64,000 nucleotides of DNA from Alphaproteobacteria bacterium (GCA_022600345.1 JAHZKP010000039.1:10089-74088), one strand, 5' to 3'. Counted from the first letter of the stretch, positions 6,757 through 57,419 are shown. The notes: generated from the sequence alone by a model not told the origin. Numbers and translations are program-made.

Positions 6757-7108
6757 CTAGCAGGCTGTTGAAAAACTCATGTGGCTCGCGACACCTGTCA
6801 CTTTTTCGCATTCGGCCAGAAGCGGCGCGCAGCGTGATATGGTTTATCGTGCCAGTGCCGCGACGCCGCCGAGGCGAAAAAGTGCGGTGTCCCAAGGGGA
6901 TGCGGCGAAATTGACTGCCGGACTGCGTTGCGCCGGTTTGCCGTGGGACCAAAGGCAATGACACACCTGTGCGCAGGTGAGAAAGCGGCGTTCGAGGGTG
7001 TTCACTTTGCTAGGCTGGCTTTGGTTTCCGCCGCTCACAAGCCATTACGGTATGCTCCTCATGGACACTGGCCCCTACCCGCGACCATCGAAAATGAGCA
7101 CGGTCTAG
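6757..7108. repeat. CTAG-flanked MITE-like structured non-coding element(s)
   Basis: Starts CTAG-CAGGCTGTTGAAAAA; long imperfect hairpin 6790-6816 / 6868-6891; palindrome CACCTG-tgcg-CAGGTG; further CTAG at 7010 and 7105; no convincing ORF. Confidence 0.55.
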
Positions 7109-7219
7109 CCAAGTGAGGCAGAAGGGTAGTGTCTCAGTTTGAAATCTGACGCTCTTGACTCTTGATGGCCAGCCCCTCACGTCTCTGGTATGCTTAGCGA
7201 CAAGCAGAAGGAGGCGCTA

Positions 7220-7417
7220 ATGCCAAACTACGTGGTTTGGGCGACAAATGATGTGGATGAATGGTCCCACTGCCTTTTAGAGACAGAGCAAGGATCTGCG
7301 GCGAAGGAGAAGGCTCACACGGTCGTTGAATCGCGGCAATTCAGGTTCGTTGCCCTGGATTGTGATGGGCGGACCATCTGGTCGAATGATCCCAATACGC
7401 CAACGGAAACGGACTGA
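7220..7417 (+). CDS. Small hypothetical passenger protein (65 aa)
   Basis: Strong RBS GGAGG before ATG 7220; stop lies 2 nt before the next ATG. Confidence 0.55.
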   Translation: MPNYVVWATNDVDEWSHCLLETEQGSAAKEKAHTVVESRQFRFVALDCDGRTIWSNDPNTPTETD

Positions 7418-7419
7418 CG

Positions 7420-7665
7420 ATGCCTAAAACTCCAAAAAGCAAAAAGCGTCCTTCAGACGTTATCGGCAACGCCGTAAGGGTGATGCAGATCGCTACCGGT
7501 GAGGTTGAGGAAGACACCGAAGACGACGGCAAGGACAAGGCTGCGCAGTCTATGGGACGGCGAGGTGGGAAGGCACGTGCCGCCAAGATGACACCTAAGC
7601 AGCGCTCCGAAATCGCCAAAGCTGCGGCTAACGCTCGTTGGACGAAAGAGGATGATCCCCAATAG
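7420..7665 (+). CDS. Small basic KGG-motif-like protein (putative nucleic-acid binding) typical of IS1/IS1595 passengers
   Basis: KRPSDVIGNAVRVMQIATGE...AAQSMGRRGGKARAAKMTPKQRSEIAKAAANARW, a recognisable small family that I recall beside these transposases. Confidence 0.8.
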   Translation: MPKTPKSKKRPSDVIGNAVRVMQIATGEVEEDTEDDGKDKAAQSMGRRGGKARAAKMTPKQRSEIAKAAANARWTKEDDPQ

Positions 7666-8560
7666 CCTTGGCTTGGAAAATGCCATTTTGGTTTTCTATG
7701 ATCTTTGCAATCGGCGTATTCATCAGGGTGAAAACAAATGCATGGTGAACTCCAAGTGCTAGATCTTGCATTTCTTGGTCGGACTCAAAATTCATAATTT
7801 TAAGACCGACCTCCTCACATTCCTCTCGATGTATGTGTCGGCTGTGATGTTTATGCTGTGTGGCATCGGAGAAATAGTTAACAATTTTGTCCGCCTTTTC
7901 CTCCGCATCATCATGTCCCTCAAACATACCTCTCATCAGGGACTTCTTGCCGATTTCCTTCGACCAATCAATAGCGTGACGGCACGTGGAAAGGAAAGTT
8001 GGGCGGATCTGCTCGAGGATTGGCCGGTACACATGGATAAGCTCTGGAGCGGAAGCAATCTTCTTTGATATATCATCAAATTCGTCCAGCACTAGCTGTG
8101 CCGGTTGAGAACCAAACTGCGGATCAATAGGGCCCAGATTACTGTGCAGCCCCATCCATATCTCTTTCCCGGCGAAAGCAATCATAGTGCCGCCAGACAT
8201 GCTTAGTTGAGGAACAAACACTCGTACGTTTGAACCGAATTTCGAACGAATATAATGGATTAGTGAGTCTGTTGCTGCAACATTGCCACCCGGAGAGTGG
8301 ATGAAAATGTCTAGCCCGTTTTCGAATTTCATGTTTCGAAAACACGCCATCAATCCGTTTTTGTCCTCATCTGTGATGGAAACAAATGAACCGAAACCAG
8401 GGCCATTCTTCTGTAGCCAACCCGAGTAGTAAGCTAGCGCATTTCTTCCTGTCTTTTCGGCAAATCGGTTAAGGTGAATGCGACGAACCTCGTTGAACGG
8501 ATTCTTAGTTGTTCTGGCAAGTTCGTCGACCTCTTCAGAAATTTCGTCCCAATTTGCCAT
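7628..8560 (-). CDS. ClpP-class serine protease (SDH_sah / S49-like)
   Basis: IHSPGGNVAAT...FVPQLSMSGGTMIAFAGKEIWMGLHSNLGPIDPQ and HSRHI motifs; ATG 8560 after GGGAG. AT-richer than flanking host genes. Confidence 0.85.
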   Translation of the reverse strand: MANWDEISEEVDELARTTKNPFNEVRRIHLNRFAEKTGRNALAYYSGWLQKNGPGFGSFVSITDEDKNGLMACFRNMKFENGLDIFIHSPGGNVAATDSLIHYIRSKFGSNVRVFVPQLSMSGGTMIAFAGKEIWMGLHSNLGPIDPQFGSQPAQLVLDEFDDISKKIASAPELIHVYRPILEQIRPTFLSTCRHAIDWSKEIGKKSLMRGMFEGHDDAEEKADKIVNYFSDATQHKHHSRHIHREECEEVGLKIMNFESDQEMQDLALGVHHAFVFTLMNTPIAKIIENQNGIFQAKAIGDHPLSSNER

Positions 8561-8567
8561 GCGCGAT

Positions 8568-8765
8568 CTATCTCCCACCTGCCAATACATGTGACGGGTA
8601 ATATACCGGTTCTTCACCGGGATAGTAAGTTACTGACGGTCTATTAGTTGCCGCGCCGTCGCCACACCGAGTTAGCTCTTTCAAGCGTGCTTCTCGTAGT
8701 GTGTCGTCCTTATCGGTGGATGCAACCTTCTTCTCGGTGCGTTCATTCATCGGTCTTACTCCCAT
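8568..8765 (-). CDS. Possible small peptide upstream of the protease (about 60-65 aa)
   Basis: ORF ends 7 nt before the protease ATG; start uncertain (8765 or 8750); no family recognised. Confidence 0.3.
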   Translation of the reverse strand: MGVRPMNERTEKKVASTDKDDTLREARLKELTRCGDGAATNRPSVTYYPGEEPVYYPSHVLAGGR

Positions 8766-8860
8766 GCTTTCTACTACAGTGACATCAAACGATTCGGACG
8801 TAAATATTTCGTTTCTTAACAATCTTTGTGCTTGACGCTAAGCATATAAGTTCACATATT

Positions 8861-9748
8861 ATGGGCATGAACAAATTGCCCCTGCATAAGCGCGTCCAAA
8901 TCCTCTCCATGCTCTGCGAGGGATCGTCCATGCGGTCGATCTCGCGGGTGTGCGATGTGTCGATCAACACGGTGTCAAAGATGCTGGTTGATATGGGGAA
9001 GTTTTGCGCAGGTTTTCACGATGAAAACGTTCGCAACGTTCATTCCAAGCGCGTGCAGGTTGACGAAATCTGGAGCTTCACGGCAGCGAAGCAAAAGAAC
9101 GTCGATGCAATGAAGAAGCCGGTTGATGGAGCTGGCGACACCTGGACGTGGACGGCGCTGGATGCCGATAGCAAGCTGATCGTTTCCCACTTCGTTGGTG
9201 GCCGTGATGCTCATTGTGCAAAGGTGTTCATCAACGATCTGGCCAGCCGACTAGCAACGAGGGTGCAGCTCACATCAGATGGCCATAGGCCATACCTTGA
9301 GGCCATCGAAGGAGCGTTTGGCGCGGATGTTGACTATGCCATGCTGGTGAAAATCTACGGTGCTGCACCGGAAAGCGCCAAGGGCCGTTATAGCCCGGCA
9401 GATTGCACTGGTATTCGCAAGACCCGCATCGAAGGTGATCCAGACGAAAAGCACGTTTCCACCAGCTACGTTGAGCGATCCAACCTGACGATGCGGATGC
9501 ACAACCGACGCTTCACACGACTGACCAATGCCTTCTCAAAGAAGTTTGAGAACCATGCGCACATGGTCGCGATCTATTCTGTTTGGTATAACTTCGTTCG
9601 TATCCACAAAACACTACGGGTGACACCAGCGATGGAAGCTGGCATTTCCGAAAAGGTTTGGAAGTGGGAAGACGTGCTAGAAATCTTCGATGAGCAGGCT
9701 CCGAAGCCGGGCCGCCCGAAGAAGTACAAGAAGAATAATTCAAACTGA
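8861..9748 (+). CDS. IS1-family DDE transposase
   Basis: MNKLPLHKRVQILSMLCEGSSMRSISR HTH region; VDEIW, TSDG and YVERSNLTMRMHNRRFTRLTNAFSKK DDE motifs. The stop codon lies inside the right IR. Start 8861 or 8867. Confidence 0.92.
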   Translation: MGMNKLPLHKRVQILSMLCEGSSMRSISRVCDVSINTVSKMLVDMGKFCAGFHDENVRNVHSKRVQVDEIWSFTAAKQKNVDAMKKPVDGAGDTWTWTALDADSKLIVSHFVGGRDAHCAKVFINDLASRLATRVQLTSDGHRPYLEAIEGAFGADVDYAMLVKIYGAAPESAKGRYSPADCTGIRKTRIEGDPDEKHVSTSYVERSNLTMRMHNRRFTRLTNAFSKKFENHAHMVAIYSVWYNFVRIHKTLRVTPAMEAGISEKVWKWEDVLEIFDEQAPKPGRPKKYKKNNSN

Positions 9749-9881
9749 GACACTACCGGCAGAAGCCTGAGATTGCGGCTCTCAGGCGGGTGTGATAGCC
9801 AGCGAGCCTCACATGGCGATCGTTAACCAACCAGAACGCGCGCGCCAACCTTGAAATTGTTTTTACGGACGACACCTGGAT

Positions 9882-10388
9882 ATGAGCGAAAATCAGAACG
9901 GAAACAATCAACAGCCTGCAGCCAAGGCCGAGGAAGGTAAACCGACCATTCAGGCCCAGGTCATCGCCCAGTACATCAAGGATCTGTCGTTTGAAAATCC
10001 GAACGTCGAAAAACTGCTCGGCGGGCCGGGTGACAACCCGAACATGAAGCTGGAAGTCAACGTCAATGCCCGGCGCATGAAAGAAGACCTTTTTGAAAGC
10101 GCGATCGACTTCAAGGCGCACGCCACCAACAAGTCGGGCACGATCTATCAGCTTGAATTGGTCTATGCGGGTATTTTCAAGGTCCAGAACATCCCCGAGG
10201 ATTCACTGGAGCCGTTCTTGCTGATCAACTGCCCGGCGCTGATCTTCCCTTATCTTCGCCGTTTGGCTTCCGACCTGACACGGGAGGGCGGCTTTCCACC
10301 GCTGCTGCTCGACCCGATCGACTTTGCCAGCCTTTATATGCGTCGCAAGCAGCAGGAAGCCGGTGAGGGTGCCCCGCTGGTCAATTGA
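9882..10388 (+). CDS. secB: Protein-export chaperone SecB
   Basis: QYIKDLSFENP and LINCPALIFPYLR...GGFPPLLLDPIDFASLY motifs. Confidence 0.95.
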   Translation: MSENQNGNNQQPAAKAEEGKPTIQAQVIAQYIKDLSFENPNVEKLLGGPGDNPNMKLEVNVNARRMKEDLFESAIDFKAHATNKSGTIYQLELVYAGIFKVQNIPEDSLEPFLLINCPALIFPYLRRLASDLTREGGFPPLLLDPIDFASLYMRRKQQEAGEGAPLVN

Positions 10389-56291: not shown

Positions 56292-57419
56292 ATGCCCTTT
56301 GATCCCAGTCAGCCATACAACGCACTTCCCGATCTGCCCCCAGAGGTCGAGCTTGAGACCAAGCGTGTCCTTAAGGCCTGTGTGGGCGCAAGGACGGCCT
56401 TGGCTGAACTGCGTCTTGCAGGTCAGCTTATCCCCAATGAAGATGTGCTGATAAATACGATTCCGCTTCTTGAGGCCAAAGACAGCTCAGAAATAGAAAA
56501 CATCGTCACAACCAACGATGCACTGTTTCGAGAAGCAAGCCATCCCAGTGCAGACAGCGACCCAAATACGAAAGAGGCGCTCCGGTATCGTGCGGCGCTC
56601 TACAATGGAGTTGGGTCCTTGAAGGAACGTCCGCTGTCCACGAGAGCTACACTCGAAATTGTCAGCGAGATAAAAGGCGTTGACATGGATCTTAGGACCA
56701 CGCCTGGGACAACTCTGCGAAATGCACACACTGGGGAAGTCATTTACACGCCCCCTGAGGGAGAAGAGCGGTTGCGCGATCTCATGGCTAACTGGGAGCA
56801 GTTCGTTCATCGTGAGGACGATCTTGATCCACTCGTGCGCATGGCGGTCCTGCACTACCAGTTCGAGGCAATCCACCCATTCACAGACGGCAACGGTAGG
56901 ACAGGCCGGATTCTCAATGTCTTAGTGCTCATCGAGGCAGGTCTTTTGGATATCCCGACGCTTTATCTTAGCCGACATATCTTGCGGACAAAGGGTGACT
57001 ATTATCGATTGCTGGAAGCGGTGACAAAAGGCGGCGCCTGGGAGGCGTGGGTCCTATACATGCTCAAGGCTGTTGAAGAAACGGCTGGTTGGACAAATCA
57101 ACGAATCAGGGCCATCCGACTACTCATTGATGATACTTCCGATTACGTCCAGCATAAGTTGCCGAAGATCCATTCACATGAATTGATCCAGTTGATTTTT
57201 GCATTGCCCTACACGCGGATTTCGCATCTTGTCGCAAGCGGAATCGCAAAGCGTCAGGCGGCCTCTACTTATTTAAAGGAGTTGGCTGAAGCCGGCGTTC
57301 TTGAAGAGGAAAAAGTTGGCCGGGATAAGATTTTCGTGCATCGCAAGTACATGGAATTGCTCGCTTCGGACGGCAACGAATTCGCGCCTTACCCCAAGCT
57401 CAATGAAAACAGGGCATAG
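56292..57419 (+). CDS. fic: Class II Fic protein adenylyltransferase (SoFic-like)
   Basis: HPFTDGNGRTGR catalytic loop; SSEIEN inhibitory motif; C-terminal wHTH-like region (RQAASTYLKEL...GVLEEEKVGR). Confidence 0.92.
   Translation: MPFDPSQPYNALPDLPPEVELETKRVLKACVGARTALAELRLAGQLIPNEDVLINTIPLLEAKDSSEIENIVTTNDALFREASHPSADSDPNTKEALRYRAALYNGVGSLKERPLSTRATLEIVSEIKGVDMDLRTTPGTTLRNAHTGEVIYTPPEGEERLRDLMANWEQFVHREDDLDPLVRMAVLHYQFEAIHPFTDGNGRTGRILNVLVLIEAGLLDIPTLYLSRHILRTKGDYYRLLEAVTKGGAWEAWVLYMLKAVEETAGWTNQRIRAIRLLIDDTSDYVQHKLPKIHSHELIQLIFALPYTRISHLVASGIAKRQAASTYLKELAEAGVLEEEKVGRDKIFVHRKYMELLASDGNEFAPYPKLNENRA

Follow-up and report, generated by a model that had tools for sequence, protein, structure and literature searches.

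An intact IS1-family transporter insertion sequence with hypervariable cargo slots and a small-protein/protease cassette in an alphaproteobacterium

An IS1-family element and its genes

We analyzed a 64,000-nucleotide stretch of DNA from an alphaproteobacterium (Alphaproteobacteria bacterium, GCA_022600345.1, JAHZKP010000039.1:10089-74088), hereafter called the window, and describe an insertion sequence (IS) that lies at its positions 7125-9757. The element is an intact, single-copy transporter IS of the IS1 family and belongs to a large alphaproteobacterial lineage whose transposase is encoded by a single open reading frame (ORF). Besides the transposase gene it carries a small backbone gene and two slots of cargo, the second of which holds a cassette of a small ORF followed by a serine protease gene. 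A preliminary description of the locus, made from the sequence, had proposed that this cassette could be a defence or toxin-antitoxin-type module, and that proposal is weighed below. The features of the element are as follows (aa, amino acids; nt, nucleotides; IR, inverted repeat; TSD, target-site duplication).

7117-7124: left copy of the TSD, GGCAGAAG, read in the sequence and identical to 9758-9765
7125-7143, + strand: left terminal IR, GGTAGTGTCTCAGTTTGAA, near-invariant in related elements
7155-7212, + strand: conserved left leader, with TTGACT at 7155-7160, TATGCT at 7189-7194 and the operator candidate ATGCTT-AGCGAC-AAGCAG at 7190-7207
7220-7417, + strand: 65-aa ORF, cargo of slot 1, with GAAGGAGG upstream; its stop codon lies 2 nt before the next ATG
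7420-7665, + strand: backbone gene for an 81-aa basic protein, a candidate regulator or co-factor of the element
7628-8560, - strand: second gene of slot 2, SDH-type serine protease of ClpP/SppA fold, 310 aa, predicted to be soluble; 38 nt at its 3' end are shared with the 81-aa gene, which is convergent
8568-8765, - strand: first gene of slot 2, small partner of 65 aa (60 aa if started from the ATG at 8750, behind GGGAG), with the tail ...YYPGEEPVYYPSHVLAGGR
8828-8845, + strand: palindrome GTGCTT-GACGCT-AAGCAT, overlapping the transposase promoter over its -35 hexamer
8832-8860, + strand: transposase promoter TTGACG-17-CATATT, called by a promoter scan and ending 6 nt before the ATG at 8867
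8867-9748, + strand: intact DDE transposase of the IS1 family in a single ORF, 293 aa; it bears a helix-turn-helix at the N-terminus as well as the motifs DEIWSF, TSDGHRPY and YVERSN
9739-9757, - strand: right terminal IR, the exact reverse complement of GGTAGTGTCTCAGTTTGAA, overlapping the final transposase codons and the stop
9758-9765: right copy of the TSD, GGCAGAAG, read in the sequence

The two terminal IRs (7125-7143 and 9739-9757) are complementary at 19 of 19 positions, and GGCAGAAG stands immediately outside both of them, confirming the perfect ends and the 2,633-bp extent that had been described. A DNA search of the 4.09-Mb assembly found one copy of the element. The same repeats together with a perfect 8-bp TSD were present in 26 of the 30 relatives in which both ends could be recognised, and those 30 two-ended relatives range in length from 2,014 to 3,486 bp. 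Because so many relatives share both features, a chance origin can be excluded. The gene content also agrees with the preliminary description, in that the transposase, the two genes at the left end and the oppositely oriented small ORF and protease gene were all present as ORFs. The cargo was indeed richer in AT: its GC content is 46.3%, whereas the backbone has 53-54% and the genome 58.4%.

The transposase and family membership

The transposase passes the cut-off of the Pfam family PF03400, DDE_Tnp_IS1 (28 bits; cut-off, 24.1), and matches NF033558, transpos_IS1, at an E-value of 3e-18 with 66 bits, which is under the equivalog cut-off of 100. A homologue that is 69% identical is encoded on the Acidiphilium multivorum plasmid NZ_CP041717, where PGAP has named it 'IS1 family transposase'. 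A scan with one genome per species returned 262 relatives of the transposase at 62-83% identity, and the best 80 of these 262 were the loci examined closely; among close-relative genomes, 12 of 61 had transposase matches. When the five proteins of the element were scanned with PADLOC, the sole match was a chance-level one to the transposase.

The element resembles the IS1 family in its DDE transposase with an N-terminal helix-turn-helix, in its 8-bp TSD and in its ends, which open with GGTAGTG where those of classical IS1 open with GGTAATG. Unlike classical IS1, it has no insA/insB pair with a -1 frameshift: the ORF at 8867-9748 is uninterrupted, so the frameshift is absent and the element groups with the single-ORF members of the family. 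Further features that set it apart from IS1 are the 81-aa gene, an obligatory extra at its left end, the twin palindromic operators, the presence of two hypervariable slots, and the dominance of defence and toxin-antitoxin genes among the slot cargo of its lineage. In ISfinder, the ISMhu11 subgroup of the IS1 family carries passenger genes; a literature search returned nothing on 'ISMhu11', nor on RhuM (a type of cargo described below) together with IS1. The transporter IS, that is, an IS carrying passengers unrelated to transposition, has been described as a concept (PMC9330008). In the element studied here, the protease pair and the 65-aa ORF lie within the IRs as such passengers, and the transposase matches, the GGTAGTG ends, the 8-bp TSD and the PGAP name of the Acidiphilium homologue all support the earlier assignment to the IS1-family transporter ISs.

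Cargo exchange in two hypervariable slots

Slot 2, which extends from the 81-aa gene to the transposase gene, varied from 453 to 3,507 bp among 82 elements, and its ORFs clustered into more than 25 unrelated cargo types, each with more than one member. The following types were among them.

RhuM family, PADLOC PDC-S05: about 20 elements (E 1e-110)
HTH-M78 proteins matching RmrA, often together with RmrT (Rosmer-like): about 16 elements (E 5e-59 and 3.5e-46)
AAA_22/STAND-like ATPases: 9 elements
AAA_21 ATPases matching HEC-04: 4 elements
PD-Lambda-2_B-like proteins: 4 elements
HicB: 3 elements
Complete IetA/IetS pair: locus L089 (PADLOC E 5e-88 for IetA and 3e-37 for IetS)

The last of these loci (L089:916-5900) is from Methylobacterium sp. 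Leaf456 (NZ_LMQV01000015) and has a cargo bay of 3.5 kb.

When nine cargo labels were placed on a maximum-likelihood tree of 85 transposases, they required 54 changes, compared with a mean of 55.7 for shuffled labels and a possible minimum of 8. The cargo is thus effectively randomised relative to the transposase backbone. Since it carries no signal on the transposase tree, the cassettes must be swapped much faster than the backbone diverges, and the simplest explanation would be that homologous recombination exchanges them, acting across the conserved segments on either side of each slot. With 82 elements and more than 25 cargo types, the cargo hotspot that the preliminary description had suspected between the small conserved gene and the transposase is strongly borne out.

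A single capture of the protease cargo was considered and rejected, because the well-supported branches of the transposase tree cannot be reconciled with fewer than six origins. The protease pair is present as cargo, as had been described, but it is recurrent in the lineage rather than a one-off.

The 65-aa ORF in front of the 81-aa gene had been taken for its operon partner. It does lie beside that gene, but its placement had to be corrected, as it sits in a second hypervariable slot. The protein gave no match in Pfam, NCBIfam, PADLOC or PHROGs. The slot 1 ORFs of 60 related elements fell into 54 unrelated clusters, in which the 65-aa ORF of the window is a singleton. In ten elements there is no ORF here, and about 97 bp separate the left repeat from the 81-aa gene; in the remaining elements this separation is 250-644 bp, with a small ORF that runs up to the start of that gene. 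The slot 1 ORFs (at the position of 7220-7417, in loci L021-L110) assort independently of the cargo in slot 2.

The backbone gene and the twin palindromes

A homologue of the 81-aa gene was found upstream of the transposase gene and on the same strand in nearly all fetched relatives, at 44-83% identity. An alignment of 57 sequences showed that R10, P11, D13, G49, R53, R73 and W74 are invariant, and the AlphaFold2 (AF2) model consists of three helices (pLDDT 82.8). No Pfam family, including KGG (PF10685), matched the protein at E <= 0.1, and the 'KGG-like' label given to it earlier does not hold. Neither a sequence search nor a fold search gave a match in the Protein Data Bank (PDB); the sole match was phrog_2384, listed with unknown function, at E 1.4e-6 over residues 44-76.

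The C-terminal motif of this protein, GGKARA..(L/M)(T/S)..(E/Q)R.EIA.KAA..RW, recurs in many slot 2 ORFs of sister elements, on either strand. Its carriers include the RhuM-type cargo of L024, L036, L048, L049, L051, L052 and L064, and others. The N-terminus of phrog_2384 matches the motif too, so the motif could be a module that is portable.

Two non-coding blocks of the backbone are also conserved. The left leader has the family consensus cTTGAC...TATGCTTagCGgaAAGCAt (71 left ends), and the region upstream of the transposase has the consensus TgCTTGACgctAAGCAtaaaAGTTCAtATaat..ATGAAC (82 elements); the palindrome ATGCTT-N6-AAGCAT is common to both. The left leader pairs with 8823-8846 as a 24-nt, 88% inverted repeat, which is explained by the palindromes at 7190-7207 and 8828-8845 being twins. 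The promoter assignment in the left leader is tentative because its TTGACT and TATGCT hexamers are 28 nt apart, and the promoter scan called none within 7155-7212. These data suggest a common regulator for both palindrome blocks, for which the 81-aa protein would be the obvious candidate. Either this protein or the helix-turn-helix of the transposase could bind the twin palindromes and thereby couple expression of the left operon to that of the transposase.

The protease

The 310-aa protein of slot 2 passes the cut-off of PF01972, SDH_protease (E 2e-18, 66.8 bits; cut-off, 31.3). It also matches NF047768 (E 1.6e-23, 83.5 bits), but under the equivalog cut-off of 250, and we therefore regard it as a divergent subfamily. 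Searching a large protein collection gave 4,047 homologues at E <= 1e-5, the nearest being 64-65% identical, and 10 of 401 alphaproteobacterial genomes had a homologue, in the patchy pattern of an accessory gene. No confirmed relative was found in a scan of IMG/VR.

In an alignment of 44 homologues, H88, P90-G92, S122 (in M-S-G-G), H139, D146, H239, H242, H272-H273 and K286 are invariant. When the PDB was searched with a profile, ClpP alone matched (E 7.5e-4), and its nucleophile was aligned with Ser122. The AF2 model is of high confidence (pLDDT 93.6, pTM 0.90), and the best solved folds for it were Bacillus subtilis SppA (3rst and 4kwb) and ClpP, at a Foldseek E of about 3e-3; in 4kwb, SppA has a C-terminal peptide in its active site. 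The best viral folds were giant-virus 'serine dehydrogenase proteinases'. The enzyme resembles SppA and ClpP in that its nucleophilic serine stands in a G-x-S-x-G-G-type turn, aligned with the ClpP serine. It differs from them in an identity of only 13-17%, in lacking a membrane anchor or signal peptide and in a helical C-terminal part of about 130 residues. The invariance of His139 suggests a Ser/His(/Asp) centre and not the Ser/Lys pair of SppA. No hydrophobic segment was found in the protein, nor did we find a solved or studied member of this branch. Taken together, these results describe a soluble and probably active serine protease of the ClpP/SppA fold whose Ser/His centre is intact.

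Some homologues are longer, at about 350 aa (P0042, P0047, P0064, P0083, P0114 and P0119 in alignment A3), and have an extra proline-rich linker followed by a C-terminal amphipathic helix, for example FLKRLRLALGIIFKVN, which could allow membrane targeting. The protease of the window does not have this helix.

Another reading sees the pair as left over from phage head morphogenesis: the protease would be a prohead protease, its partner would resemble a scaffold, and both would be carried along passively with no function for host or element. There are weak matches to ClpP-related head-maturation proteins (NF045542, E 5e-6; phrog_1684/53, E about 3e-4), and homologues do occur in temperate phages and prophages. 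The strong matches, however, are to SDH-type proteins and not to head proteases (PF01972; phrog_11747, of unknown function, E 3e-83). In most contexts portal and capsid genes are unlinked to the pair, the pair shows independent mobility, and the reading frame, the catalytic residues and the partner are kept across 36-65% identity in non-phage contexts. We consider a head-protease remnant very unlikely.

The small partner and the occurrence of the cassette

The stop codon of the small partner is 7 nt from the ATG of the protease gene, whose ribosome-binding site lies within the end of the small ORF. A same-strand small ORF ends a few nucleotides from the protease start in all fetched contexts (L112-L129), and one was also present in 73 of the 76 metagenomic protease loci with enough upstream sequence. 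A lack of conservation of this ORF was one of the findings that the preliminary description had named as counting against its proposal. The ORF is conserved before the protease, so that the pair constitutes an obligate cassette, and no conserved third gene was seen beside it. At some loci, the small ORF and the protease are joined in frame through stop-codon read-through.

Small proteins that partner the closest proteases have in common a short helix, (D/E)-R-(D/E)-x-x-L-(R/K)-(E/D)-(I/L), and carry C-terminal tails of the form ...YYPGEGEYYPS[HY]V.AG or ...[DH]YVPT[RK]VRA, with the common motif [YH]-[YV]-P-[ST] and one invariant proline. More distant partner groups have recurrent tails of their own (LEQPSALKYVPSTT; MYDxSYxPVKTLGxTTLI; WPWQVPQxPSYTxDHTP), and all tail classes are built around [YH]-x-P-[STV]. 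At locus L126, the small ORF beside the long protease homologue P0055 has a tail of the WPWQVPQxPSYT class.

Two other roles of the small ORF bear on these tails. It could be a leader or regulatory ORF that governs translation of the protease and has no role as a protein partner, as its shortness, tight coupling and fast-diverging N-terminal half might suggest. Yet the tail motif and helix are kept where the proteases are only 53-65% identical, one proline is invariant, and distinct tail classes recur at many independent loci, all of which makes a mere leader extremely unlikely. Alternatively, the pair might be a peptide-maturation unit, in which the small protein is a precursor that the protease cuts at the tail, releasing a bioactive or signalling peptide. 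A variable N-terminal part with a short conserved C-terminal motif beside a dedicated protease would fit such a unit, and the two genes appear to be translationally coupled. Against this, the surroundings contain no conserved gene for an exporter, a modification enzyme or immunity, neither the protease nor the small partner has a signal peptide or membrane segment, and the pair occupies a slot that otherwise holds defence or toxin-antitoxin genes. Peptide maturation therefore seems to us unlikely, and a defence or addiction module the better reading.

Only a minority of the copies of the pair reside in an IS. The pair adjoins a transposase of the lineage at L021, L112, L122, L136, L137, L138, L172, L182 and L193, several of these copies being partial or diverged, and decayed lineage copies with the pair are found at L125, L128 and L168. 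L021 is the copy on the Acidiphilium plasmid, with a protease 41% identical to that of the window. Elsewhere, the pair is located in an island rich in toxin-antitoxin genes, where Fic, HicB, Phd and the S subunit of a type I restriction-modification system are also encoded (L113), in prophages (L114, L164 and L167), in Porphyromonas, Shewanella and Gordonia phages, and in a PrimPol/AAA_25 element (L126).

The same genome holds a decayed relative of the element that has no transposase (G000:C34:12976-14412), with 1,437 bp between degenerate ends that have four mismatches each. One strand of this interval encodes both a protein homologous to the 81-aa one, with 45% identity, and an SDH-like protease that is only distantly related (26-30% identity); no small ORF precedes the protease of this relative. 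The sequences flanking it, GAATCTTA and CAATCTAG, have the appearance of a duplication that has eroded.

That this relative again joins the 81-aa gene type with an SDH-like protease could mean that the cargo serves the transposon, with the protease controlling how much transposase or 81-aa protein is present, in the way that the host protease Lon limits some transposases. The divergence of the cargo operon from the transposase promoter and operator would be in keeping with such a role. Near-identical sister backbones, however, bear unrelated cargo, and some bear almost none (slots of 453-805 bp); moreover, the pair is mostly found away from any IS. Service to the transposon is thus scarcely credible beside a role in defence or addiction.

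Function of the cassette

DefenseFinder has a gene model named FS_HP_SDH_sah (PMC13532340). As in that model, a small hypothetical protein adjoins a PF01972 (formerly SDH_sah) protease on a mobile element in our case, and the pair thus has the architecture of a listed anti-phage system. The carrier here differs, being an IS1-type transposon in an alphaproteobacterium, and the likeness is one of architecture. The pair also has the layout of type II toxin-antitoxin systems, with a small upstream gene and, coupled to it, a larger gene downstream, both borne by a mobile element.

Toxin-antitoxin modules are reported to lie inside Tn3-family transposons (Lima-Mendez and co-workers, 2020), and Tn7-like transposons reportedly carry defence cargo (Benler and co-workers, 2021). 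The present lineage is like these in having addiction or defence genes near the transposition genes. It is unlike them in that the vehicle is an IS of 2-3.5 kb with one transposase and that its cargo has no phylogenetic signal.

The defence or toxin-antitoxin proposal of the preliminary description has support by association only: RhuM/PDC-S05, RmrA/RmrT, IetAS and HicB occupy the same slot in other elements, the small ORF is conserved, and DefenseFinder includes a model with the name FS_HP_SDH_sah. The cassette would then be a conflict module of the FS_HP_SDH_sah kind. The tail of the small protein might fill the substrate groove of the protease as a pseudo-substrate or labile inhibitor. If the small protein were lost, cleaved or displaced, upon phage infection or loss of the element, the protease would be freed and could cleave host or phage proteins, with the result that phage growth would be halted or cells losing the element would be killed.

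Several observations weigh against this account. Neither the protease nor its small partner had a match in PADLOC 2.0.0, and the literature search gave nothing on PF01972 in defence or on S49/ClpP-like anti-phage systems. Among 150 neighbour ORFs of the copies outside ISs, PADLOC matched CBASS, a type I restriction enzyme, methylases and an AriA-like gene, but 53 ordinary genes of the window also gave generic matches. The promoter scan found no consensus promoter for the cargo operon. The gating of the protease by the tail is a step that we infer outright. FS_HP_SDH_sah is reported to come from phage-inducible chromosomal islands of enterobacteria and to have been validated experimentally by Fillol-Salom and co-workers (in Cell, 2022). 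As for mobility, a search with the joined flanks as query found no empty insertion site in 16 other genomes of the genus, so that 'recent' transposition is inferred from the perfect ends alone.

Each of the alternatives set out above is nevertheless weaker than the defence or addiction reading. That the cassette is such a module, with the tail of the small protein lying in the protease groove until it is lost or displaced, is in our judgement finely balanced, tipping slightly towards doubt. The broader explanation, a modular IS with exchanged slots and a conflict cassette, accounts best for the data as a whole, and we consider it fairly probable. A more specific proposal would make the lineage a dedicated shuttle of conflict genes, with two independently shuffled bays, one repressor acting on twin operators and a protease switch that the Y-x-P-[ST] tail would hold closed until infection or loss of the element. 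In such a shuttle, slot 1 may hold small proteins of fast turnover, for example anti-defence or immunity factors, and slot 2 defence or addiction systems. We hold this fuller proposal to be doubtful.

Insertion sequences are usually viewed as bare transposase genes, whereas this lineage is a modular vehicle of 2-3.5 kb that moves anti-phage and addiction genes (IetAS, Rosmer-like, RhuM-type and the protease pair) among alphaproteobacteria. Fast swapping of its cargo would be a simple and very mobile route for the spread of immune genes. The cassette also offers a compact natural context, and many variants, of a widespread protease/micro-protein pair, with the conserved tail motif, Ser122 and His139 as experimental handles.

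Neighbouring features

The IS lies 116 bp upstream of an ORF at 9882-10388 (within 9766-10388 of the window) that resembles secB by eye. Because the transposase gene points toward it, read-through could alter the expression of this secB-like ORF.

On the other side, 166 bp upstream of the insertion, lies a dispersed repeat of about 190 bp (6758-6951) with about 57-65 copies in the genome. The repeat surfaced in the empty-site search and is unrelated to the element; a MITE (a transposable element of the miniature inverted-repeat type) or a REP-like (repetitive extragenic palindromic) sequence are candidates for its nature. It is often found at contig ends and therefore probably breaks the assembly. 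Farther along the window, at 56292-57416 on the + strand, a gene encodes a 375-aa Fic-domain protein with the motif HPFTDGNG, which matches SoFic in PADLOC at E 1.8e-119.

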